From an uncultured Nitrososphaerota archaeon (GTDB lineage Archaea; Thermoproteota; EX4484-205; JAAOZP01), in NCBI GenBank assembly GCA_964416155.1, contig CAYQCW010000004.1:30658-94657 (forward strand): 64,000 nucleotides of DNA. Reading direction: 5' to 3'. A program made the position numbers and the translations under genes. Positions 11,315 to 25,864 of this stretch are shown piece by piece; positions within the stretch are counted from its first letter, which is position 1; every line of letters begins with the position of its first letter. The notes beneath the pieces were generated by a model, which made no database searches, was not told where the DNA came from, and saw only the letters and a list, made by a program, of their open reading frames with translations.

Positions 11315-11980
11315 TTGGCAAGCCTGATTGACCGGGAGCTGAAGTTCTTCTTAACCTCGCCACTCTTTATGGTCTTGGAGCTTGTTCCAGCAGCATCGGT
11401 CGCCTATGTTATACTGTATTCCGGTTTCTTCAAATCCGTTATTCCTTTTATTACAATAATATGGATAATGATAGTTCTCTTCTCAACCTTTTTCGAGCTC
11501 GAGGTCTGGCGTGGGAATTTTTTAAATAGGGGTTTCAAGTTGAAACTTTATGTTAACACTTCCGAGTACAAACCCTTCTTAGCCCACTCCTTGGCTTCCC
11601 TTATTCTCCTAGAGCTTAAAACACTTATAGCACTTTTAGTAATTCTAGTGCCTTTACAGGCTCCGCCTTCTATTGAGATAGGGTTCTTTGTTTTAGCGAC
11701 GCATGCTTTCTGGCTTTTCGCATTATCCGTCGGATACGTTGTTTCTAAAGAAGTTTTAAGGAGGTCTTCGAGCTTAACTGCATTTTTCATATACATGCTT
11801 ATTTTCAGCGCAGTGACGTTTAGCATGCCTATTCAGCAATCTGATCAAACACTTTCACTTTTCGGTTTAAGACTTGATACATTCACATTAATCTTTCTGT
11901 TCGTTTCACTGCTGCTTTACGTCTTAGCCTTATATGCTTGCTCGGTGGAAGCCAGGAATATTCGTATCGACGATTTTTAG
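11315..11980 (+). CDS. Multi-pass membrane protein, ABC-2-like permease
   Basis: About six hydrophobic segments; 6 nt after the ABC ATPase. Confidence 0.65.
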   Translation: MASLIDRELKFFLTSPLFMVLELVPAASVAYVILYSGFFKSVIPFITIIWIMIVLFSTFFELEVWRGNFLNRGFKLKLYVNTSEYKPFLAHSLASLILLELKTLIALLVILVPLQAPPSIEIGFFVLATHAFWLFALSVGYVVSKEVLRRSSSLTAFFIYMLIFSAVTFSMPIQQSDQTLSLFGLRLDTFTLIFLFVSLLLYVLALYACSVEARNIRIDDF

Positions 11981-11993
11981 CCTGCTTAAGGGG

Positions 11994-12173
11994 AAAGGTT
12001 AATATAGGCCTCCCAGTGGGCACACTGCTTAGGAGGTGCGCTGAGTGTACCATAGTATTCACGCTCCAAGGGGGCGGGACACCGTCCACCAACTGCAGAG
12101 GCCCCGCTGCAAGCCCAGCCTCCGCTAGGGAAACAAGGGTTTTCAACAGGCTGTTTGCAAGAGGTGTTTTAAA
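11994..12173 (+). promoter_or_regulatory. ilvBNCD promoter and long conserved leader
   Basis: AAAGGTTAATATAG promoter, GCTTAGGAGGTG (12027-38), ACGCTCCAAGGGGGCGGGAC (12061-80); mirrored upstream of leuA. Confidence 0.75.
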
Positions 12174-13847
12174 ATGGTTTCAGGGTCAAGACTACTGGTG
12201 GAGAGGCTGAGGGAGAACGGGGTTAAAACCATCTTCGGAGTGCCTGGCGGTGCGGTGCTCCCGTTCCTGGACGAGCTGTATAAGGCGAACGACATAGAGT
12301 TCATTCTGACTAGGCATGAGCAGGGTGCTGCCCACATGGCTGACGGTTATGCTAGGGCAACCGGCAGAATCGGCGTAGTCCTAACCACATCCGGCCCCGG
12401 TGCAACTAATCTTGCAACAGGCATTGCCAACGCCTACTTGGATTCCACACCGGTTTTAAGCATAGCCGGCCAGGTTGCGACGCCGCTCATAGGCTACGAC
12501 GGTTTCCAGGAGGCTAATATTTTCTCCATGATGATAGGGTTGACTAAGATGAACTTTCTACCCAGGGATTTGAACGAGCTTAACTCCGCCCTTGAAAACG
12601 CTTTTAAAATAGCCTTATCCGGAAGACCGGGGCCTGTTCACATAGATGTTCCTAGGGATGTTCAGCTGATGGAGGGTGAGCCAGACGATGATTTCTACGT
12701 TTACTCTTATACTCCTCTCTCTCCTTCAGACGAGGAGATTCTAACAGCCTCAAGGATGCTGGTTGAGGCTGAGAGGCCTGTTATCATCGCCGGGGGAGGA
12801 GTAATAATGTCAGGCGCGCACAGCGAGCTTATTGCTCTCGCCGAGCTTCTAAACGCTCCCGTGGCGACGACGCTGATGGGTAAGGGAAGTATTCCTGAGG
12901 ACCACCCGTTGTCCCTGGGGATGCTTGGGATGCATGGGAGGCTCGGCGCGATCAAGGCTGTTCAGGAGAGCGACCTGGTTCTCGCCGTAGGCATGAGGTT
13001 CAGCGACAGGACTACGGGTAAGCTAAGCGGCTTCGCGCCGGGGGCTAGGAAGATACATGTTGACATAGATAGGTCTGAAATCGGGAAGCTGCTTAAGCCC
13101 GAGCTTGGTATCGCCGGGGACGCTAAACAGGTTTTAAACAGGATTCGCGAAGCTGTTCTCAGGCTTTTCCAGAAGGATAAGGCTGGCACATGGGGTGAAA
13201 GAGTGAAGCAGCTCAGGAAGGAGTCTGAATTTCTTTACGATTACGATGCTGTCCCAGTTGATCCGAGTGCCGCCGTTAGGGTTCTCAGCGACTACGTTAG
13301 GCCTGAAGACTTTGTGACGACTGAGGTTGGCCAGTGTCAGATGTATGCTTCGCTTCACTTCACAGCTAGGCGTCCAAGGCAGTTCATATCCTCCGGCGGC
13401 CTGGGGACAATGGGATTCGGGCTTCCGGCTGCAATCGGGGTTAAGGCGGCCTTCCCGGGGAGCCGTGTTTTCGACATAGCTGGGGACGGCAGCTTCTTCA
13501 TGACTTGCAACCAGCTTCCTGTTTCAGTCGACTATAATCTACCGATCATAGTCATGGTTCTCAACAATTATTTCCTGGGGATGGTGAGGCAGTGGCAGGA
13601 GCTCTTCTACGGCAGAAGGTATATTGCCGTGGACTTGAAGGGTAGGGCTGACATAACTAGGGTTTCAGAGGGTTTCGGCGCCAGAGGGTTTAAGGCGACG
13701 AGGATAAGCGAGCTTAAAGACGCTCTTGAAACCGCTTTAAAACAGGATGAGACGACTGTGCTCGACGTTATTGTCGAGAGGGAGGACAATGTTTTCCCAA
13801 TGGTTCCCCCGGCTTCCCCGCTTGACAGCGTTATCGTAAGGAGGTAG
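12174..13847 (+). CDS. ilvB: Acetolactate synthase large subunit
   Basis: FGVPGG, RHEQGAAHMADGYAR, TSGPGATN, GLGTMGFGLPAAIG, GDGSF...NN TPP motif. Confidence 0.97.
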   Translation: MVSGSRLLVERLRENGVKTIFGVPGGAVLPFLDELYKANDIEFILTRHEQGAAHMADGYARATGRIGVVLTTSGPGATNLATGIANAYLDSTPVLSIAGQVATPLIGYDGFQEANIFSMMIGLTKMNFLPRDLNELNSALENAFKIALSGRPGPVHIDVPRDVQLMEGEPDDDFYVYSYTPLSPSDEEILTASRMLVEAERPVIIAGGGVIMSGAHSELIALAELLNAPVATTLMGKGSIPEDHPLSLGMLGMHGRLGAIKAVQESDLVLAVGMRFSDRTTGKLSGFAPGARKIHVDIDRSEIGKLLKPELGIAGDAKQVLNRIREAVLRLFQKDKAGTWGERVKQLRKESEFLYDYDAVPVDPSAAVRVLSDYVRPEDFVTTEVGQCQMYASLHFTARRPRQFISSGGLGTMGFGLPAAIGVKAAFPGSRVFDIAGDGSFFMTCNQLPVSVDYNLPIIVMVLNNYFLGMVRQWQELFYGRRYIAVDLKGRADITRVSEGFGARGFKATRISELKDALETALKQDETTVLDVIVEREDNVFPMVPPASPLDSVIVRR

Positions 13848-13853
13848 GGTGAG

Positions 13854-14342
13854 ATGGCTTCCGACGAGAATAAGAGGTTCATCGTGCTCAGGGTTATCAA
13901 CATGCCTGGGGTGATGGAGCGGATATCCTCAATATTCGCGAGGAGGGCGATAAACATTGACACGATTACAGTCGGCATGGTGAACGGGAGGACTTCGGAG
14001 ATATCGCTGACCTTCAGCCTGCCTGAGGAGAAGTTTGAAAACATAGTGAAGGTTCTTGGGAAAAACCCCTGTGTCTCCGAGGTTAAGATAGGTTCTCTCG
14101 AGTACGACGTGATAAGGGAGGCATTCGTAGCTGTTCTGAAGGATTGCGACACGAGTGTGAGCGACTATATTAGGGTCAGGTACAGGGCTAGGACAACCCT
14201 GCTGAGCGGCTCCAGGCTTCTAGTTGAGCTCCTGGCCGATCCCAGGATGGTTGACGATTTCAAGGAGGAGTTTAAAGACCGTATTGAAAGCTTTTCGAGG
14301 AGCGGCGTGATGATTCACACTCTGAACCGTTTCAGAAAGTAA
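13854..14342 (+). CDS. ilvN: Acetolactate synthase regulatory (ACT) subunit
   Basis: NMPGVMERISSIFARRAINIDTI ACT motif, directly after ilvB. Confidence 0.9.
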   Translation: MASDENKRFIVLRVINMPGVMERISSIFARRAINIDTITVGMVNGRTSEISLTFSLPEEKFENIVKVLGKNPCVSEVKIGSLEYDVIREAFVAVLKDCDTSVSDYIRVRYRARTTLLSGSRLLVELLADPRMVDDFKEEFKDRIESFSRSGVMIHTLNRFRK

Positions 14343-14385
14343 AAAGCTTAAAAGAAAAGTGGCCGTGGAGTAGGGGTGACTGAGG

Positions 14386-15369
14386 ATGGCTAGGATAATA
14401 AGGGATGGTGAGATAAGCATTGAGCTGATTAAGAATAAGACTGTAGCCGTGATAGGCTACGGCTCGCAGGGTGAGGCACAGGCTAAGAACATTAGGGACA
14501 GCGGCGTTAAGACGATAATAGGCTTGAGAAGAGAGGGCGCTTCATGGAAAAAGGCCTCTGAAGACGGTTTCGAAGTCTACGAGATAGGTGAGGCCGTTAA
14601 GAGGAGCAGCATTATTCTCATGCTCATCCCGGATCCTGCTCAGCCGGCTGTCTACAGGGATCACGTTGAGCCGAATGTTTCCAAGGGTTCGACACTGGTT
14701 TTCGCGCATGCTTTCAACATTCACTACAGGCAGATAGTTCCCTCCCCTTGGCTCAACGTCGTCCTCGTGGCTCCTAAGGCGCCTGGCCCTGCGTTAAGGG
14801 ACGCGTATGTTCGCGGAACCGGGGTTCCGGGCTTAATAGCTGTCCACCAGGATTACACTGGGGACGCCTCGAAAACAGTCAGAGAGGTTGCGAAGGCTGT
14901 GGGGCTGAGCAGAATCGGCTTGATAGAGACATCTTTCAAGGAGGAGGTTGAGACGGATCTTTTCGGCGAGCAGGCTGTGCTGTGCGGCGGGGTATCGTCG
15001 CTTATTAAAAGCGGCTTCGAAACCCTTGTTGAAGCAGGATACCAGCCTGAGGTGGCGTACTTCGAGGTTTTAAACGAGCTGAAGCTTATCGTCGACCTGA
15101 TATGGTCTAAAGGCCTATCCGGCATGTGGCAGTCTGTTAGCGACACTGCTAAGTACGGCGGTCTTACGCGCGGCCCCTATCTTATAGATGAGGATGTTAA
15201 GAGGAAGATGAGGAAGCTCCTTGAAGACGTTCAGACGGGTGTTTTCGCAAGGGAATGGATACTGGAGAACAGCTCCAATCAGGTTGTTTTGAAGACACTT
15301 GTTGAAAGGGAGGGAAACCACCTGATAGAGACCGTTGGAAGGAAAATAAGGTCGATGGTGTACGGTTGA
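14386..15369 (+). CDS. ilvC: Ketol-acid reductoisomerase
   Basis: GYGSQG, VAPKAPG, ETDLFGEQAVLCGG, SDTAKYG. Confidence 0.97.
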   Translation: MARIIRDGEISIELIKNKTVAVIGYGSQGEAQAKNIRDSGVKTIIGLRREGASWKKASEDGFEVYEIGEAVKRSSIILMLIPDPAQPAVYRDHVEPNVSKGSTLVFAHAFNIHYRQIVPSPWLNVVLVAPKAPGPALRDAYVRGTGVPGLIAVHQDYTGDASKTVREVAKAVGLSRIGLIETSFKEEVETDLFGEQAVLCGGVSSLIKSGFETLVEAGYQPEVAYFEVLNELKLIVDLIWSKGLSGMWQSVSDTAKYGGLTRGPYLIDEDVKRKMRKLLEDVQTGVFAREWILENSSNQVVLKTLVEREGNHLIETVGRKIRSMVYG

Positions 15370-15376
15370 GAAAGGC

Positions 15377-17011
15377 TTGATGAGGAGCGACGCTGTAAAG
15401 AAGGGTGTGGACAGGGCTCCGCACAGGTCTCTGCTCCACGCCTTGGGCTTGAGGAGCGAGGACTTCGACAAGCCTTTCATAGGCGTGGTCAACTCCTACA
15501 CCAACGTTGTGCCGGGGCATGTTCACCTCGACATGATTGCGGAGAAAGTTTCCGAAGGCGTTAGAGACGGGGGCGGAGTGCCTTTCGTCTTCAACACGAT
15601 TGCTGTCTGCGACGGTATTGCTATGAACCACGATGGAATGAGGTTTTCACTGCCTAGTAGAGAGGTTATTGCAGACTCGGTTGAGATAATGGTTTCAGCA
15701 CACATGTTCGACGCCCTTGTCTTCATATCCTCGTGCGACAAGATTGTCCCCGGCCACCTGCTGGCGGCAGCAAGGCTGAACCTTCCATCCATATTCGTTA
15801 CAGGCGGCCCCATGTATCCAGGGGTTTTCAAGGGGAGGAGGGTGGACCTTGTTTCAGTCTTCGAGGCCCTCGGCGAGTACCGTGAGAGGAGGATTACGCT
15901 TGAGGAGCTGAGGGAGTTTGAACGGGTCGCCTGCCCGGGTGCCGGGAGCTGCGCCGGCCTGTTCACCGCGAACACTATGGCCTGCCTTGTCGAGGCAATG
16001 GGCATGTCGCTTCCAGGCATGGCTGCTACTCACGCTGAGGACGATGCTAAGAAGACTCTCGCATACGAGTCTGGAAGAAGGATAGTCGGGCTCTGGAGGG
16101 AGGGCTTAAGGTTCAAGGATATTGTTAAGCCTGAAAGCCTTGTTAACGCGATAATTGTCGACAATGCTCTCGGAGGCTCCACTAACACTGTTCTCCACCT
16201 GAATGCTCTCGCTAAGGAGGCTGGCTACGATCTTTCGCTGAAGATTTTCGACGAGCTGAGCAGGAGGATACCCACGCTGGTTATGATAAGGCCGTCTGGA
16301 GAAGGATTCATGGTTGACTTATGCAACGCGGGCGGAATCCCCTCGCTTATGAGAACCCTTAGAAAACATCTTAACTTGGATGTTCTTACTATTACCGGTA
16401 GACGCCTCAGGGAGCTTGTTGAAGGGTTTCCGGACCCGAGGGGCACGTTCATACGTTCCCCGGATAACCCGTACAGGGGGGAAGGAGGCATAGCGGTGCT
16501 ATGGGGATCATTGGCGCCGGAGGGTGCTGTGATTAAGCTCGCCGGGACGCCTGTTCAGCTTAGAACGTTCAGAGGCAGGGCTAGGGTTTTCAACTCTGAG
16601 GAGGAGGCTGTTGAAGCGCTTGAAAAGGAGGATTTCACGGTGGACACTGTGGTTGTCGTGCGCTACGAGGGGCTTCTAGGCGGACCCGGGATGCGTGAAA
16701 TGCTCATGCCCACCTCGCTCATAGTCGGCAGGAAGCTTGTTGAAAGGGTTGCGCTGGTCACTGACGGAAGGTTCTCAGGCGGCACGAAGGGTATTGCGAT
16801 AGGCCATGTTTCTCCAGAGGCTTACGCGGGAGGACCCATAGCGCTCGTGGAGGATGGTGACGAGATACTTGTAGATGTGTCGGGCAGGAGGCTGGACCTG
16901 CTTGTCGACAGTGATGAGCTTGAAGAAAGAAGGCGGAAATGGGCTCCGCCGGCTAAGAGGCTTGAAAGCCGGTTCCTAGCTAAGCTGAGGGGAAACAGGT
17001 TTTTCACCTAG
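15377..17011 (+). CDS. ilvD: Dihydroxy-acid dehydratase
   Basis: PGHVHL, CDGIAM, SCDKIVPG, GGSTN, GGPGMREM, TDGRFSGG. Confidence 0.97.
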   Translation: MMRSDAVKKGVDRAPHRSLLHALGLRSEDFDKPFIGVVNSYTNVVPGHVHLDMIAEKVSEGVRDGGGVPFVFNTIAVCDGIAMNHDGMRFSLPSREVIADSVEIMVSAHMFDALVFISSCDKIVPGHLLAAARLNLPSIFVTGGPMYPGVFKGRRVDLVSVFEALGEYRERRITLEELREFERVACPGAGSCAGLFTANTMACLVEAMGMSLPGMAATHAEDDAKKTLAYESGRRIVGLWREGLRFKDIVKPESLVNAIIVDNALGGSTNTVLHLNALAKEAGYDLSLKIFDELSRRIPTLVMIRPSGEGFMVDLCNAGGIPSLMRTLRKHLNLDVLTITGRRLRELVEGFPDPRGTFIRSPDNPYRGEGGIAVLWGSLAPEGAVIKLAGTPVQLRTFRGRARVFNSEEEAVEALEKEDFTVDTVVVVRYEGLLGGPGMREMLMPTSLIVGRKLVERVALVTDGRFSGGTKGIAIGHVSPEAYAGGPIALVEDGDEILVDVSGRRLDLLVDSDELEERRRKWAPPAKRLESRFLAKLRGNRFFT

Positions 17012-17014
17012 CCA

Positions 17015-18031
17015 ATGTCTACACCATGCTCCGAGGGTTTTTCGGTTAAGCTGGACCGTTTCGCAACCATTCGCCTCAGGGAAGGGGAAACGCTTCTGAA
17101 AACAGGCTTAGACGAGGCTTTAAACTATCTTTTCATATCTCACGCTCACTTCGACCATCTGGTTAAGTCTGACGCTAAGAGAGCAATGGCAGTATGCTCG
17201 GAGGAGACTCTTCTGCTTTCAACGCTCAGAGGGCTTGAAGTAAATCGTGCTGAGCAGAACCGTTTTACCCTTCTCGACTCAGGCCATATCCTTGGGTCTA
17301 AAGCCCTGCTCATAGAAACCGATAAGGGTGGAATACTGTACACTGGGGATGTTAACACTTCGCCGGTTGAAGGCATACCTAGGCAACGCTTCCCCCGGGT
17401 TCACACGCTGATAATAGAGTCTAACTACGGTCGCCCCAGCCTGGTTTTCCCTCCTAGGAGACAGCTGATAGGGGAGATTGTTGACTACGTGAGTGAAACA
17501 GTTAAGAGGGGTAGGCCCATGGTTCTAATGGGGTATCCGCTGGGGAAGTCTCAGCATGTTCAAATGGTTCTGGACACTGTCCTCCAAAGCGTTGTCGAAA
17601 CATACGTTTCACCATCCATAGCGGAGTATAACAACGTTTACAGGCTTTTCTCAGTGGGAATAGGGGGGAAGAAAGTTTTCACGCCTCAGTCCCCGGAGCT
17701 GCCGGATGGCTCTTGGGCTCTCTACTATCCCAATGTCTCAGGCAGGAATGCTTTCATGCAGCTCGTCAAGAGGAAGTATGACGCTGTCTCCATAAGCTTC
17801 TCAGGCAGGTCGCTTTTCAACTGGTATAGTGAGACGCTGGGTGTGGACAAGGCTTTCCCCTTGAGCGACCATGCTGATTTCAACGGCCTGATGGAGGTCG
17901 TGAGGGAAACCTGTCCGGAGAAGGTTTTCACAGTCCACGGTTTCCCGGAGGAGTTTTCAAGGGAGCTTAGGAGGCTCGGCTACGATTCTAAACCATTACG
18001 TCCAAGCATGGAGGCCAGCTTCAGGCTTTAG
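17015..18031 (+). CDS. MBL-fold (beta-CASP-like) hydrolase/nuclease
   Basis: HAHFDH, GHILGS, YTGD, ESNYG, SDHAD motifs. Confidence 0.85.
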   Translation: MSTPCSEGFSVKLDRFATIRLREGETLLKTGLDEALNYLFISHAHFDHLVKSDAKRAMAVCSEETLLLSTLRGLEVNRAEQNRFTLLDSGHILGSKALLIETDKGGILYTGDVNTSPVEGIPRQRFPRVHTLIIESNYGRPSLVFPPRRQLIGEIVDYVSETVKRGRPMVLMGYPLGKSQHVQMVLDTVLQSVVETYVSPSIAEYNNVYRLFSVGIGGKKVFTPQSPELPDGSWALYYPNVSGRNAFMQLVKRKYDAVSISFSGRSLFNWYSETLGVDKAFPLSDHADFNGLMEVVRETCPEKVFTVHGFPEEFSRELRRLGYDSKPLRPSMEASFRL

Positions 18032-20933: not shown

Positions 20934-21500
20934 TTGCTAATTAGAAAGGACAAGATAATAGGCCTACAGGTTTACGATAAGAGAGGCCGGTACGTCGGCA
21001 AAGTTAAGGACATAGGGTTTGTCCTAGGCGAGAACCTTGTTGGAATAGTCGTTGTTGGTAGAGACAATAGGGAGATGGAGTTCATCTGGAGCGAGGTTGA
21101 TGCCGCTGAAGACATAGTGATACTTAAGAAGGAGGTGACTGTTCCCGCTGCACCCCCTGCGCCGGCGAAGCCGGCTGTCGAGACGCGTGAGGAGCCGAAG
21201 GCCCAGGTGAGGGAACAGGTTTCAGCGAAGCCTCCCACATACTTGCCGAGGGAGCCGGAGGTTCAGGTTGCTTCAAGCAGTGATGCAGCCAGGGTTCCTG
21301 AGGCTCAGTCTTCTTTCAAGGAGCCTGCTGAATTCGAGGAGGCAGAACTGGAGCATGGTGAAACCGTGGCCGCTGCACCGCGGCCTGCTCCCGAGGAGAC
21401 GGCTGGCGGTGCAGGAACCAAGTCTTGTCCGAAGTGCGGAGCCATAAACAATGCGCGCTACAAATTCTGCTTCAGATGCGGAACCAGGCTGCCCGCTTAG
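20934..21500 (+). CDS. PRC-barrel protein with Pro/Ala/Glu linker and C-terminal zinc ribbon
   Basis: IIGLQVYDKRGRYVGKVKDI...EDIVIL PRC pattern; CPKCG...KFCFRCG. Confidence 0.85.
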   Translation: MLIRKDKIIGLQVYDKRGRYVGKVKDIGFVLGENLVGIVVVGRDNREMEFIWSEVDAAEDIVILKKEVTVPAAPPAPAKPAVETREEPKAQVREQVSAKPPTYLPREPEVQVASSSDAARVPEAQSSFKEPAEFEEAELEHGETVAAAPRPAPEETAGGAGTKSCPKCGAINNARYKFCFRCGTRLPA

Positions 21501-22339
21501 CTTAACGGTTCTTTAAGAACTATTCCGCGGCCCCTCTCTATTTCAAACCTGTAGATTATTGGGTTCACAGCGGTCCAGCGCATCTTCCTTATGAACATCG
21601 TTCTTATGATGGAGTTCCCAACCCTAGATAGGGAGAGTATTATGACGCCGCTCGCCAGAAACTCTTCAACACCATACCTGCTCATCATGTTCTCCCCGGT
21701 GGGGACCTCTGATGTTATCACGGTGGTTACGCCAAGCTTCTCCTCAATCGAGAATATGAGGCTCCTAATGTATTCTCTAACCCATGCAACCTCGTTCGAG
21801 TAGGTGGTGACCAACGGGGCTATCGGATCTATGACGAGCCTCTTGGCCCCTATTTCCCTCCTCCTCTTGTCAAGCTCCTCTATTATGTTGTTGACTATAG
21901 TGTCCATTTCCCTTCCCCACATCTTGGAGGTGAAGTATCTTCTAACCGGGAGGATCGCGAGCTTCCTGGTCTCTATAAGGGGCTGAAGATCCCAGCCGAA
22001 GTTTCTCACGTCTCTCACAAGCATCTCCGGCCTCTCGTCTATCGTAACGTATATCCCGGGCTCGTTGTTCTTAGCCCCGTATAAAAGGTACTGTAGGCTG
22101 AAAATCGTCTTCCCGGTTCCAGCCTCTCCGGCGAGAAGGCATGTTTTGCCGGATTCGAACCCGCCCTCCAGGATCTCGTCTATCGCGGAGTTGCCTGTTG
22201 AAACCCTTCTAACATAGGAGACTCCTTTCCGCGGGGTTCCACAGGCTGGGCAGAACTTGTATTCGGGGCTGAGTGGACGCCCACATTCACAGTAGTAAGC
22301 GCCTACAGCCTCTCTTTTAACCGCCTCTCTCCGCTGCAA
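21497..22339 (-). CDS. Single-domain KaiC/RAD55-like ATPase with N-terminal zinc ribbon
   Basis: STGNSAIDEILEGG, GEAGTGKT, LVIDP, RKMRWT; CECG...KFCPACG. Confidence 0.9.
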   Translation of the reverse strand: MQRREAVKREAVGAYYCECGRPLSPEYKFCPACGTPRKGVSYVRRVSTGNSAIDEILEGGFESGKTCLLAGEAGTGKTIFSLQYLLYGAKNNEPGIYVTIDERPEMLVRDVRNFGWDLQPLIETRKLAILPVRRYFTSKMWGREMDTIVNNIIEELDKRRREIGAKRLVIDPIAPLVTTYSNEVAWVREYIRSLIFSIEEKLGVTTVITSEVPTGENMMSRYGVEEFLASGVIILSLSRVGNSIIRTMFIRKMRWTAVNPIIYRFEIERGRGIVLKEPLS

Positions 22340-22402: not shown

Positions 22403-22900
22403 TTATCTGCGTTTCTCCAAAAAATAGTTTATTAAACCTCCCGCCTCTATTATTTTCATCATGAATTCGGGCATTTTATCGCAGGAAAACTTTTCCCCGG
22501 TTTTAATAATCGTTAAAACCCCGTTGGCAACGTCGAGCTCAGCCTCATCCTCATCCTTAAGCCTTTCTAAACCCTCGGTCTTCCTGATGATGAGCGCGGG
22601 AAGACCCAGGTTTATAGAATTCCTGTAAAAGATTCTCGCGAAGGACTTGGCGACTATCGCTTTCACTCCGGAGTGTTTCAACGCTATTACCGCGTGCTCC
22701 CTGGAGCTCCCCAGTCCAAAATTCTCGCCGGCAACTATTATTGCTCCACCTGAAGCCTTCGCCCTGAACTCAGGGTAATAGTCTTCGAAAACATGCTTCG
22801 CAAGAACCTCAGCGTCGTGAGTCACCAAGTATCTAGCAGGTATTATCACATCCGTGTCCACATTGTCGTCAAGCCTGATAATCCTGCCGCGTATTTTCAA
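22403..22900 (-). CDS. leuD: 3-isopropylmalate dehydratase small subunit
   Basis: DNVDTDVIIP, NFGLGSSREHA, SFARIFYRN. Confidence 0.95.
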   Translation of the reverse strand: MKIRGRIIRLDDNVDTDVIIPARYLVTHDAEVLAKHVFEDYYPEFRAKASGGAIIVAGENFGLGSSREHAVIALKHSGVKAIVAKSFARIFYRNSINLGLPALIIRKTEGLERLKDEDEAELDVANGVLTIIKTGEKFSCDKMPEFMMKIIEAGGLINYFLEKRR

Positions 22901-24162
22901 GCCAGAAGCCTCCTAGGGTCAGTTATTCTACCCTCTACTGCTGAAGCAGCCACCGTCGCTGGGGAGGCGAGGAAAACTTTGCTCCTCTTATCGCCCATCC
23001 TGCCTACAAAGTTCCTGTTGCTGCTTGAAACCGCAACCTCGCCTTCTGCAAGAACCCCTCTAGACATTCCCAGACATGCGCCGCAAGTGGGGCTCGTAAC
23101 TATTCCGCCTGCTCGCACAATCTCCTCGATGACTCCTGTTCTCAAAGCCTCCGCGTAAACCTTGACTGAAGCTGGGCTAACCACCAGCCTCACACCCGGC
23201 GCGATACTTCTACCCCTAAGTATCCTGAGAGCTACGAGAAGATCGTCCAGCCTCCCGTTCGTGCAGGAGCCTAGGAAAGCCTGGTCTATCTCAAGGCCTT
23301 CAACCTCTGCGACGGGCTTAACGTTGTCCACGCTGTGCGGCAAGCTTACAACAGGCTCCAGGTTTGAAACATCCATCTCGATCCTCTCAAGGTCCGCGTC
23401 AGGGTCGCTCCTCACTTCCAGCAGCCCGCAGCATCTCCCCCAGCTCTCAGCATACTCGGTGCTTTTAGAATCTGTTTGAACAATCCCGGTTTTAGCACCC
23501 GTCTCAACAGAGAGGTTTGCAAGAGTGAGGCGTTCAGACAGGGTCATTAGGCTTACTGTTTCACCCGAGTACTCTAGGGCCTTGTAGGTTGCTCCGTTGC
23601 TGCCGATTTCCCCGACGATGCTTAAAGCAACGTCTTTCGCGAAAACGCCTTTCCCAAGCCTCCCCTTAACCTCAACCAGCAGTGTTTCAGGAATCCTCAG
23701 CCATATTTCTCCCGTTGCTAATACAACAGCAGCATCAGTGGAGCCGACGCCTATTCCAACCGCGCCGGTTGCTCCAGCTGTGCAAGTATGGCTGTCCGCG
23801 CCAACTATCAGGCAGCCCGGCACGTCGAAGCCTTCTTCAAAGAGAACCTGGTGAGCTATACCTCCCCTCCCTATTTCGAAGAAATTGCTTACCCCGTGTT
23901 TTTTAACGAAGCCCCTCATCCTCCTCATCTGGTTGGCCAGGTCTATCGTGCTCGGGGGAACATCATGGTCGAAAACCACTATCACCCTGCTCGGGTCCCA
24001 GACTTTCCCGGAGATTTTTTCAAACTCTTCAACAGCCAGCGGCCCAGTCACCTCGTGCAGCATCAGGAAATCCACCTTAGCCTCGACTATTTCACCCACT
24101 TCCACGCGGGGCCTGCCTGTTTTCCTGGAAACCACTTTCTGTATTGCTGTTAAACCAGTCAT
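22897..24162 (-). CDS. leuC: 3-isopropylmalate dehydratase large subunit
   Basis: GADSHTCT, GSCTNGR, PTCGACLG, NRNFVGRMG. Confidence 0.95.
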   Translation of the reverse strand: MTGLTAIQKVVSRKTGRPRVEVGEIVEAKVDFLMLHEVTGPLAVEEFEKISGKVWDPSRVIVVFDHDVPPSTIDLANQMRRMRGFVKKHGVSNFFEIGRGGIAHQVLFEEGFDVPGCLIVGADSHTCTAGATGAVGIGVGSTDAAVVLATGEIWLRIPETLLVEVKGRLGKGVFAKDVALSIVGEIGSNGATYKALEYSGETVSLMTLSERLTLANLSVETGAKTGIVQTDSKSTEYAESWGRCCGLLEVRSDPDADLERIEMDVSNLEPVVSLPHSVDNVKPVAEVEGLEIDQAFLGSCTNGRLDDLLVALRILRGRSIAPGVRLVVSPASVKVYAEALRTGVIEEIVRAGGIVTSPTCGACLGMSRGVLAEGEVAVSSSNRNFVGRMGDKRSKVFLASPATVAASAVEGRITDPRRLLA

Positions 24163-25694
24163 CCGCCAACCCTCTTAATCTGCAGAAGCCTGTTGGCCCC
24201 GTTCAGTATTGCGTAAACCCCTGCTAGCACAATGTCCTCGCTGAATCCTTTCGCAGTCACGCTCCGCCCCTCATCGTCTGAAACCCTTACCGTAACCTCT
24301 GCAAGCGCGTCTGTGCCTCCTGTGATCGCCTCCAGCCTGAAGCTTTCAAGCTTTATCTTAACCAGGTCGCCGAGAAGCCTGCTGACAGCCTTCATCGAGG
24401 CGTCTATCGGCCCGACTCCGAACTCAGCCCCCCTCCACGCCTGTTCTCCTCTCCTTATCTTTATTGTTGCTGTCGGCGTCGTGTTCAACCCTGTAACCAC
24501 GAGAAGCTCTTCAAGCTCTATACGGTCCTTATCACTAACCCCGTACCCTATGACGCTTTCAGCTATCGAGGCGAGCTCAGCGTCAGTAACCTTCTTACCC
24601 TTGTCGCCAATATCCTTGACTATTTTAAGAACCTGCTTCAACTCTTCTTCGCTCAGCCTATACCCCATTTCTTCAAGCTGCGCTGAAATCCCGTGGACAC
24701 CGGCGTGCTTCCCGGCTACCAGCCTTCTCCTAGCCCCGACGAACCCGGGGTCTATAGGTTCATAAGTCTCTGGGGATGCCAGTATGCCGTGAGTATGGAT
24801 CCCGCTCTCATGGGAGAAAGCGTTTTCCCCAACTATAGGCTTGTTCACAGGTATTGCTATGCCGGTTATCAGGGAGACCAGCCTACAGGTGTTGTATATC
24901 TCTTTAAACTTCAAGCCTGTTTCAACACCGTACAATACTTTAAGGGAAACCGCTACCTCCTCTAGGCTCGCGTTGCCTGCTCTTTCTCCCAGCCCGTTCA
25001 CCGTCACGTGTGCCTCAGCAGCCCCTCCCTCGATTCCTGCAAGCGTGTTCGCGACAGCTAGGCCCATGTCGTTGTGGCAGTGTACCGCAACCGGGATCCT
25101 CAGGGCTTCACAAATCCTTTTAACAATCTCCCGCATGGCTAATGGGGTTGCAACGCCAACAGTATCGGGGATATCGACTGTGCTTGCCCCGGCTTCTTCA
25201 ACCCTCCTGTAAAACTCCACTAGGAAATCAATACTTGTCCTGGTGGCGTCTTCGGCTGAAAACTCTATTTTCATACCGTAGGATTTAGCGAGGTCTATGG
25301 ATTCAACAGCCCTGCGTATGGCTTCATCCCTGCTTATCTGCAACTTCTTATTCAAATGTATGTCCGAGGTCGCTATGAAGAGATGGATTCTCCCCGCTCC
25401 AGTTGAAGCAGCCTTCTCAATATCCTCCTTCATGCATCTGGATAGGGCAGCGATCTCCGCGTTCAACCCTTCCCTAACTATCAGCTTAATAGCCTCCTCC
25501 TCGCCGCGCGACGTCGCAGGGAAGCCTGCCTCCACCACGGGTACTCCAAGCGCGTCAAGCTGTCTCGCTATCCTAAGCTTATCCTCAGGCGTAAGCGCGA
25601 CCCCTGGAGTCTGCTCACCGTCCCTTAGAGTAGTGTCGAAAAGAATCGCCCTGTCAGGTATTTTAGCCTCAGTAAGGTATCCTCTCCAAACCAT
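24159..25694 (-). CDS. leuA: 2-isopropylmalate synthase (LeuA/CimA family)
   Basis: DTTLRDGEQTPG, HCHNDMG, GLGERAGN, HESGIH, C-terminal regulatory domain; citramalate synthase cannot be excluded. Confidence 0.9.
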   Translation of the reverse strand: MVWRGYLTEAKIPDRAILFDTTLRDGEQTPGVALTPEDKLRIARQLDALGVPVVEAGFPATSRGEEEAIKLIVREGLNAEIAALSRCMKEDIEKAASTGAGRIHLFIATSDIHLNKKLQISRDEAIRRAVESIDLAKSYGMKIEFSAEDATRTSIDFLVEFYRRVEEAGASTVDIPDTVGVATPLAMREIVKRICEALRIPVAVHCHNDMGLAVANTLAGIEGGAAEAHVTVNGLGERAGNASLEEVAVSLKVLYGVETGLKFKEIYNTCRLVSLITGIAIPVNKPIVGENAFSHESGIHTHGILASPETYEPIDPGFVGARRRLVAGKHAGVHGISAQLEEMGYRLSEEELKQVLKIVKDIGDKGKKVTDAELASIAESVIGYGVSDKDRIELEELLVVTGLNTTPTATIKIRRGEQAWRGAEFGVGPIDASMKAVSRLLGDLVKIKLESFRLEAITGGTDALAEVTVRVSDDEGRSVTAKGFSEDIVLAGVYAILNGANRLLQIKRVGG

Positions 25695-25864
25695 TACGAC
25701 CCCCTCCTAAAACAGGTTTAAAACAATATCGTTTTTCAACAGTCTCTAATAGAGGTGTCACTGTTTCTGGAACGCAGGTGGTCTCGCCCCCTTTGGGCGT
25801 TACGAGTCATGAGTATGCTACACACCTCCTTAGCGGAGACTGCTTGACTACTATATTAACTTTT
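25695..25864 (-). promoter_or_regulatory. leuACD promoter and long conserved leader
   Basis: On the minus strand: AAAAGTTAATATAG, GCTAAGGAGGTG (25834-25823), ACGCCCAAAGGGGGCGAGAC (25800-25781). Confidence 0.75.

Follow-up and report, generated by a model that had tools for sequence, protein, structure and literature searches.

The DNA examined here is a 64-kb window (the whole stretch analysed, 64,000 nucleotides (nt) of contig CAYQCW010000004.1) that carries two operons for branched-chain amino acid biosynthesis, ilvB-ilvN-ilvC-ilvD and leuA-leuC-leuD, and this report concerns the leaders that precede them. The IlvB of the window matches, at 93-98% identity, proteins labelled Candidatus Brockarchaeota or Thermoproteota metagenome-assembled genome (MAG), and by this protein identity the source is an uncultured, Brockarchaeota-like hot-spring archaeon. 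Each leader contains a short upstream open reading frame (uORF) with its own strong Shine-Dalgarno (SD) sequence (SD1), a complementary segment at the 3' end of the uORF (anti-SD), and the SD sequence of the first biosynthetic gene (SD2), an arrangement that suggests a translational attenuator. A first-pass annotation of the window had described both uORFs, and its coordinates and translations proved exact for the ilv and the leu leader when the DNA was re-read. The features of the two leaders are as follows (BRE, B recognition element; RGRD, Arg-Gly-Arg-Asp).

11995-12007 (+): BRE/TATA-like element AAGGTTAATATAG of the ilv leader, kept in all homologous leaders
12031-12038 (+): ilv SD1 (AGGAGG at 12031-12036), predicted to pair over a long range with the anti-SD, as the 5' strand of the helix
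12045-12128 (+): ilv uORF, GTG start 8 nt past AGGAGG, 27 codons, TAG at 12126-12128
12062-12080 (+): ilv copy of the shared block, CGCTCCAAGGGGGCGGGAC
12070-12090 (+): predicted hairpin B (ilv), GGGGGCG with CGUCC-A-CC, loop GGACAC
12084-12086 (+): ilv operon-specific codon GTC (Val), two codons past RGRD
12118-12123 (+): ilv anti-SD GCCTCC, within the uORF 3' end, 7 nt ahead of the stop, complementary to SD1 and SD2
12160-12166 (+): ilv SD2 AGAGGTG, the ilvB ribosome-binding site
12174-17011 (+): ilvB-ilvN-ilvC-ilvD operon, ilvB at 12174-13847 with its ATG at 12174
25851-25863 (-): BRE/TATA-like element AAAGTTAATATAG of the leu leader, an exact copy shared with the ilv leader
25823-25830 (-): leu SD1 AGGAGGTG
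25736-25810 (-): leu uORF, ATG at 25810-25808, 24 codons, TGA at 25738-25736, peptide MTRNAQRGRDHLRSRNSDTSIRDC
25781-25799 (-): leu copy of the shared block, CGCCCAAAGGGGGCGAGAC, able to form predicted hairpin A (CGCCC/GGGCG)
25775-25777 (-): leu operon-specific codon CTG (Leu), two codons past RGRD
25751-25758 (-): leu anti-SD ACACCTCT
25701-25708 (-): leu SD2 AGGAGGGG, the leuA ribosome-binding site
22403-25694 (-): leuA-leuC-leuD operon, leuA at 25694-24159 with its ATG at 25694-25692

Both uORFs read the shared block GCY-CNA-AGG-GGG-CGR-GAY as A-x-R-G-R-D, and the two copies differ at the three places first described (GCT/GCC, CCA/CAA and CGG/CGA). With at most three mismatches allowed, the block occurs at just these two sites in 64 kb, where 0.13 would be expected, and none of 100 shuffles gave two matches. 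A nhmmer profile of the block likewise found no third copy in the window or in any fetched locus. The invariant core AAGGGGGCG lies at 12068-12076 (+), where the ilv uORF, whose peptide is (M)YHSIHAPRGRDTVHQLQRPRCKPSLR (full form MYHSIHAPRGRDTVHQLQRPRCKPSLR), reads AGG GGG CGG as Arg-Gly-Arg. The distance from GGAGGTG to the block is 24 nt in both leaders, which also share an identical BRE/TATA-like element, AARGTTAATATAG, with exact copies nowhere else in the window. On general archaeal promoter geometry, ilv transcription would start ~22-25 nt 3' of this element, just 5' of SD1. The BRE/TATA-like element, the 24-nt spacing and the downstream anti-SD, all found in both leaders, come in addition to the features noted there by the first-pass annotation.

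Frame maintenance and nucleotide-level constraint

Homologous leaders were collected by three routes, namely by tracing relatives of IlvB (78-86% identity) and of LeuA (80-82% identity) on their contigs and by one DNA-pattern scan of metagenome contigs, since an IlvB-guided scan of genome contigs had been uninformative (among the matches listed, identity was at most 51% and the motif was found in none). Including those of the window, Brockarchaeota-like MAGs and metagenomes supplied 32 distinct leaders, 19 of them ilv and 13 leu; individual loci carry L numbers below. The DNA-pattern scan returned 23 true loci, every one upstream of ilvB or leuA, and eight obvious false positives. The exact core was present in every relative retrieved by protein (78-98% IlvB or 80-95% LeuA identity), with no selection for the motif. 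The element is absent upstream of leuA at 58-61% identity (L122 and L123-L125) and upstream of a Bathyarchaeia ilvB (L134), and is present in rearranged form in the outgroup L118 (ilvB, 57% identity); as judged from these sequences, it is confined to this clade. The Guaymas-type contigs L123-L125 have the same leuA-leuC-leuD-KaiC synteny, but an 82-nt spacer without uORF or motif precedes their leuA, and in one of these copies leuD is seemingly split into two ORFs.

An ORF with its own ribosome-binding site stands upstream of the biosynthetic operon throughout this collection, SD1 and a start codon being present in 32/32 leaders. The start lies 4-6 nt past GGAGGTG in most of them and 12 nt past it in a clade with ATG starts. 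In the RGRD frame, all 32 leaders have a start codon from which the frame stays open across the core; the corresponding counts in the two other frames are 5/32 and 4/32. The A/T-rich, fast-evolving 12 nt that precede the motif exist in 23 distinct versions, and stops occur in none of these versions in frame 0 versus 7/23 in frame 1 and 15/23 in frame 2, where shuffles predict 6.8. The nominal P of ~3e-4 for this avoidance holds if the versions are independent and is overstated for related sequences such as these. Indels within the ORF measure 3 nt (L081) and 6 nt (L092 versus L094), and those outside it, in the SD-to-start spacer and 3' of the stop, measure 1, 2, 3 and 9 nt and so are not only multiples of three.

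The start has itself turned over in frame, from GTG at +6 to ATG at +12 in the clade that includes the leu leader of the window, and L119 has an ATG start after a 1-nt deletion in the spacer. In L118 a 17-nt deletion would put the old GTG out of frame, and ATG/GTG codons upstream open the same RGR frame (MVMSMVRCTRGRYPVYQILCVL, then a stop); this compensated frameshift rests on one sequence, since the protein collection searched contains no relative of the L118 IlvB that exceeds 61% identity. The distance between stop and anti-SD is fixed while the codons between them vary: it is -17 nt where leu leaders retain CCTCT (12 of them) and -7 nt in the 13 long-form ilv leaders of the Brockarchaeota-like (Brock) clade. 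The first-pass annotation had named stops or frame-breaking indels in homologous leaders as the observation that would speak against it; these were looked for in all 32 leaders and not found, so that, from sequence comparison, the uORF is real and conserved and is very probably translated.

Two leu leaders of the ATG clade (L108 and L116) have a mini-ORF, GTG CAC ACA TGA, that begins 4 nt past SD1 and overlaps the uORF start with its end (ATGA), and in L101 a GTG is followed at once by TAA. These are possible start-stop or re-initiation devices before the uORF.

Within the frame, the motif evolves unlike an ordinary coding sequence. Four-fold degenerate sites of ilvB are saturated between lineages (pairwise identity 0.3-0.5), and in codons whose amino acid is invariant only 4/160 of them (2.5%) are unchanged across seven lineages, versus 6/7 of the four-fold sites in the ilv uORF core (P ~2e-9 against ilvB of the same genomes). 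With nearly all of its synonymous sites frozen, the motif requires a constraint at the nucleotide (RNA) level. Variable columns fall on the three codon positions in the ratios 3:2:2 (ilv) and 2:2:2 (leu), and the flanks are equally even. The substitution test by codon position that the first-pass annotation had proposed thus gave no third-position excess, and its hint that the synonymous differences between the two window copies reflect peptide-level selection finds no support in this even spread or in the frozen four-fold sites. The second Arg codon is always CGA or CGG, the rarest Arg codons of the genome (2% and 5%, versus 56% for AGG).

RGR is invariant in every leader, the outgroup included. 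The full A-x-R-G-R-D, present in both uORFs of the window as first reported, is not: A is replaced by T in L120 and D by Y in L118. The GAY codon flips repeatedly between C and T and never to a purine in 31 Brock-clade leaders, a pattern that is the only hint of peptide constraint in these sequences, and no amino-acid-level selection on the motif was detectable among the 32 leaders. Amino-acid conservation with free synonymous sites, as expected of an arrest peptide, is not what the alignment holds. Judging from the substitution patterns, selection on the motif is strong at the nucleotide level, and selection on the peptide alone is insufficient to explain it. An overlap of coding and pairing constraints would explain the lack of both synonymous drift and covariation, and would make the element a clean example of two such constraints freezing one sequence.

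The sixth codon counted from AGG, two past RGRD, is specific to the operon: all 13 leu leaders have CTG (Leu) there, and all 19 ilv leaders, L118 among them, have GTC (Val). A second branched-chain codon stands three codons past this Val in ilv leaders, ATT (Ile) in L118 and CTG (Leu) in the others. The conserved branched-chain codons are therefore one Leu in leu leaders and one Val plus one Leu or Ile in ilv leaders, none of them in tandem and none forming a multi-codon set. The first-pass annotation had seen no tandem Leu/Ile/Val codons in the two window uORFs and had concluded that this is not a classical attenuator peptide. We verified the former and agree with the latter, since no codon run occurs in the 32 leaders and no terminator appears in their folds, which places the element outside the classical attenuator family.

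The core AGGGGGCGR (12068-12077 and 25793-25784 (-)) matches the SD sequence of the organism, AGGAGGUGN, at 7/9 positions. It stands 9 nt upstream of the Leu/Val codon, which equals the SD-to-start spacing of the uORFs, ilvB and leuA (four sites); any meaning read into this SD-like core and its spacing is speculative. The internal SD-like element at the frameshift site of E. coli prfB is likewise AGGGGG, and no slippery site is found at the core here. Programmed frameshifting at A-AGG-GGG was considered and rejected, there being no canonical slippery heptamer and no conserved ORFs in the other frames, as was an internal start served by the SD-like core, downstream of which there is no suitably spaced start codon.

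Predicted alternative pairings and a proposed attenuator

RNAalifold, run on the ilv set and the leu set separately, predicts a long-range helix between SD1 (GGAGGUG) and the anti-SD in both alike. The anti-SD reads CACCUCC or GCCUCC in ilv leaders and ACACCUCU in leu leaders (ACCUCU). It is complementary to SD2 of ilvB or leuA as well and is conserved in ~29/32 leaders, its predicted pairing with SD1 being at least as frequent. In ensemble folding it pairs with SD1 at a mean of 0.33 (ilv) and 0.61 (leu), with SD2 at 0.28 (ilv) and 0.13 (leu), and never with the core. Duplex energies between anti-SD and SD2 were no better than those of shuffles, and those between anti-SD and SD1 were significant in leu leaders only. 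A CUCC/UCCU stretch 4-6 nt 5' of SD1 (25838-25826 (-) in the window; also L085, L107 and L120) can pair with SD1 too, as CUCC-GCUAA-GGAG in the minimum free energy structure, and would be a fourth partner in the SD/anti-SD competition if it is transcribed.

Two local hairpins involve the core. Hairpin A (CGCYC/GGGCG) has 5/5 pairs in 30 leaders, and hairpin B (GGGGGCG/CGUCY-CC) has 7/7 pairs in 19/19 ilv leaders including L118. They are mutually exclusive in ilv leaders, where A pairs CGCUC (12062-12066) with GGGCG (12072-12076). The variable positions of the ilv core all fall in predicted loops, a bulge or wobble positions that pair with G. When ribosome-sized masks were applied in equilibrium folding, mean SD2 accessibility was lowest with SD1 and the 5' part of the uORF occupied (0.24 ilv, 0.41 leu) and highest with a ribosome on the stop (0.42 ilv, 0.58 leu).

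At the Rfam gathering threshold, four tRNAs were the only hits in the window, and a scan of both leaders at E<=10 returned noise only and no described family (T-box, leuA-Halobacteria, or ilvB-type motifs if these are in Rfam 15). Sensing of tRNA in the manner of a T-box was rejected, with no Stem I, T-box sequence or Rfam match and with the only UGGU sitting in the main start codon. No intrinsic terminator (a GC hairpin plus U-run) appears before the first gene in the folds, no dedicated terminator scan having been made. A run of T4-T6 lies just 5' of SD2 in most, not all, leaders (12140-12160 and 25722-25709 (-) in the window; TTTTTT in L092/L094, TTTTT in L085/L126). Oligo-T tracts are archaeal termination signals, so that a transcriptional component of attenuation is conceivable.

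We propose that each leader acts in cis as a (translational) attenuator, a conserved RNA switch that contains a short translated leader ORF and depends on ribosome transit, and we give this reading a rough probability of 0.55. Conservation, frame maintenance, nucleotide-level constraint and complementarity are present in the sequences themselves; from them we infer translation, stalling, a signal and the sign of regulation. Transcription would begin just upstream of SD1, where ribosomes would load and translate a uORF of 20-29 codons, and the invariant AAGGGGGCGR would serve at once as Arg-Gly-Arg codons and as the arm of a local hairpin. The anti-SD (CACCUCC in ilv, ACCUCU in leu) would pair alternatively with SD1 or with SD2 of ilvB/leuA, and the position of the ribosome on the uORF (at SD1 during initiation, paused in the RGRD region, or on or beside the anti-SD at termination) would select the pairing and thereby set the translation level of the first biosynthetic gene.

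The sensor could potentially be the fixed codon two past RGRD, acting as a single 'hungry' codon, Leu (CUG) in leu and Val (GUC), followed three codons later by Leu or Ile, in ilv. Three features would slow or anchor the ribosome there, namely the rare CGA/CGG codon before it, the AGGGGG element that resembles an SD, and the hairpin. Sensing of tRNA charging at this codon is the sensor we favour, because the codon is specific to the operon and there is bacterial precedent, and it is put forward tentatively. Alternatives are an RNA-ligand or RNA-protein sensor that controls translation of the uORF, or a sensor in the nascent chain. It is a possibility we hold with similar reserve that the leaders represent the first ribosome-mediated amino-acid attenuator to be described in Archaea, one that would combine a single operon-specific sense codon, an invariant Arg-Gly-Arg register element 9 nt before it and a three-way competition of SD1, anti-SD and SD2 that sets how often translation of ilvB and leuA is initiated.

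Several observations weigh against the attenuator proposal. The anti-SD is degenerate in L132 (AUUUCU) and in L104 (CACCCUU, at -17) and unclear in L118; hairpin A is reduced to 4/5 pairs in L120 and missing from L118; leu leaders lack hairpin B; and no one fold is common to the ilv, leu and L118 leaders. Covariation is near nil, with no compensatory pairs in ilv, one in leu and none in hairpin B, so that the helices are consistent with the data but unproven. The effects of the ribosome masks are small and heterogeneous, and a mask at the Leu/Val codon leaves SD2 no more accessible (ilv 0.30 to 0.28, leu 0.49 to 0.43); as modelled, equilibrium folding fits a switch in which a stall means 'off' better than the hungry-codon scheme in which a stall means 'on'. 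A kinetic, co-transcriptional scheme can have the opposite sign and would suit the hungry codon. To our knowledge, a single regulatory codon is unprecedented among classical amino-acid attenuators. The leaders are closely related, so that their counts are not independent. The sole metatranscriptome contig, described below, gives no transcription start site.

An element acting as RNA only, a riboswitch or a site for a regulatory protein, would read 'SD1' as the anti-anti-SD strand of a closing helix P1 and the core as a binding pocket, with the uORF incidental or tolerated. It would account for the frozen synonymous sites of the core, for variation without codon periodicity and for the placement of the ilv variable positions in loops, bulge or wobble pairs. 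A P1-like helix is predicted in both sets, an anti-anti-SD strand necessarily resembles an SD, and GTGTAC is kept in L118 despite being read there in another frame. The first-pass annotation had judged its pattern compatible with such an element. Its view of a constraint on the RNA stands, but the openness of the RGRD frame, and of no other, disfavours RNA acting alone: stop avoidance in frame 0, in-frame replacement of the start, in-frame indels and a fixed distance from stop to anti-SD are not expected of untranslated RNA. Since covariation is also missing despite saturated divergence, no fold unites ilv, leu and L118, and Rfam gives no match even at E<=10, we consider this explanation unlikely. 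Still less probable is the arrest peptide suggested as possible in the first-pass annotation, in which nascent A-x-R-G-R-D-x-(L/V) would itself detect a branched-chain amino acid in free form, or a related metabolite, in the manner of TnaC, SpeFL and the fungal arginine attenuator peptide, and stalled, queued ribosomes would occupy SD1, leaving the anti-SD to mask SD2 and the operon feedback-repressed. The uORF is conserved, with RGR invariant even in the outgroup; the 12-14 residues made by the proposed stall site would lie wholly inside the exit tunnel; the GAY codon behaves as described above; and mask folding has the right sign for product-induced arrest, SD2 being least accessible with SD1 and the uORF occupied and most accessible with a ribosome at the stop. 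What such a peptide does not predict is synonymous sites that are frozen, not free, with no third-position excess, or a motif whose A and D are replaceable, and our limited literature search gave no archaeal arrest peptide.

Binding at the DNA level is a further alternative. The block contains an imperfect palindrome, CGCYC-N5-GGGCG, ~40 nt past the start site and at equal distance from the identical TATA element in both operons, and a factor bound there would block elongation of both. Loss of the 5' half-site in L118 and its mutation in L120, with the remainder kept, speak against an operator, as does conservation that spans ~50 nt with ORF-specific features; repression in Archaea, moreover, usually takes place at the TATA box or transcription start site. 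This makes an operator very improbable. Least credible of all is a stand-alone functional micropeptide co-expressed with the operons: the ORF is conserved and has its own SD, but outside RGR there is no amino-acid conservation, the length is anywhere between 20 and 29 residues, with a dispensable tail.

Relation to known leaders and surroundings of the operons

Leader-peptide attenuation is a textbook bacterial mechanism that depends on coupled transcription and translation, and for amino-acid operons of Archaea a limited literature search turned up neither an attenuator of this type nor an arrest peptide. By analogy, the proposed attenuator looks like an archaeal counterpart of the bacterial ones. 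With the branched-chain attenuators of bacteria (leuL and ilvL/ivbL of Enterobacteria; the Corynebacterium ilvBNC leader, PMC11857589) it shares a short leader ORF with its own SD directly upstream of ilv and leu operons. As in leuL and ilvL, the amino acids at the proposed sensing site fit the operon (Leu for leu; Val plus Leu/Ile for ilv), and the leader codons overlap alternative RNA pairings. It differs from them in having one candidate codon, not a run, no terminator of hairpin and U-tract, an output that is apparently SD masking in place of termination, and an archaeal host. Unlike classical leaders, it also has a near-invariant 10-nt core common to both operons.

The order of SD1, short uORF, SD2-complementary segment and SD2 is that of translational attenuators such as ermC, cat and cmlA and the mycobacterial polycysteine leaderless small ORFs. 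In the latter, ribosomes that stall block the structures by which the downstream ribosome-binding site is sequestered, and the signal is the availability of one amino acid (bioRxiv 10.1101/834739). There, as proposed here, the position of a ribosome on the uORF would decide whether the downstream ribosome-binding site is masked. In those leaders, however, the stalled ribosome covers the sequestering segment, whereas our anti-SD lies 20-35 nt beyond the proposed stall site, has a second partner in SD1, and is accompanied by no codon run.

The resemblance to TnaC, SpeFL and the fungal arginine attenuator peptide lies in a short uORF with an invariant internal motif, amino-acid metabolism genes downstream and a fixed codon at which stalling is possible. 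Those peptides are conserved in amino-acid sequence, our leaders in nucleotide sequence, with synonymous sites frozen. A conserved RNA element that overlaps a translated uORF linked to downstream expression is also described for the B12 riboswitch-uORF of M. tuberculosis (PMC11260477). Unlike that system, our leaders yielded no aptamer fold, covariation, ligand or Rfam family. If the attenuator is true, Archaea too would sense amino-acid supply through the position of a ribosome on a uORF, and would do so with a compact 130-nt module that is testable in thermophilic archaeal expression systems.

A GC-rich inverted repeat lies between the TATA box and SD1 in most ilv promoters (12008-12022 in the window; for example L085, L106, L089 and L119). 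Its arms are kept and its sequence varies by lineage (GCCC-ATGTAC-GGGGGC, GCCCC-AGTAAA-GGGGC and GCCC-TTTCTAT-GGGC, with GCC-TCCCAGT-GGGC in the window). Such a repeat might serve a transcription factor as an operator that overlies the start site or, should transcription begin earlier than assumed, form a 5' hairpin.

A 1351-nt contig from hot-spring metatranscriptome run X14, with a depth of ~33, derives from a related strain and is the counterpart of window positions 11904-12343. It reaches from the 3' part of the upstream gene across the entire leader into the beginning of ilvB, which places the region in an RNA library in which DNA carry-over is possible; because it runs on from the upstream gene, it gives no 5' end.

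The ilv operon is followed at its 3' side by a gene for a 338-aa metallo-beta-lactamase/beta-CASP-like protein (17015-18031 (+)) with weak matches to ligase-associated exonuclease and aCPSF1, and leuA-leuC-leuD is followed by a gene for a KaiC-like ATPase (21497-22339 (-)). Both the beta-CASP-like neighbour of ilv and the KaiC-like neighbour of leu are kept in the relatives.

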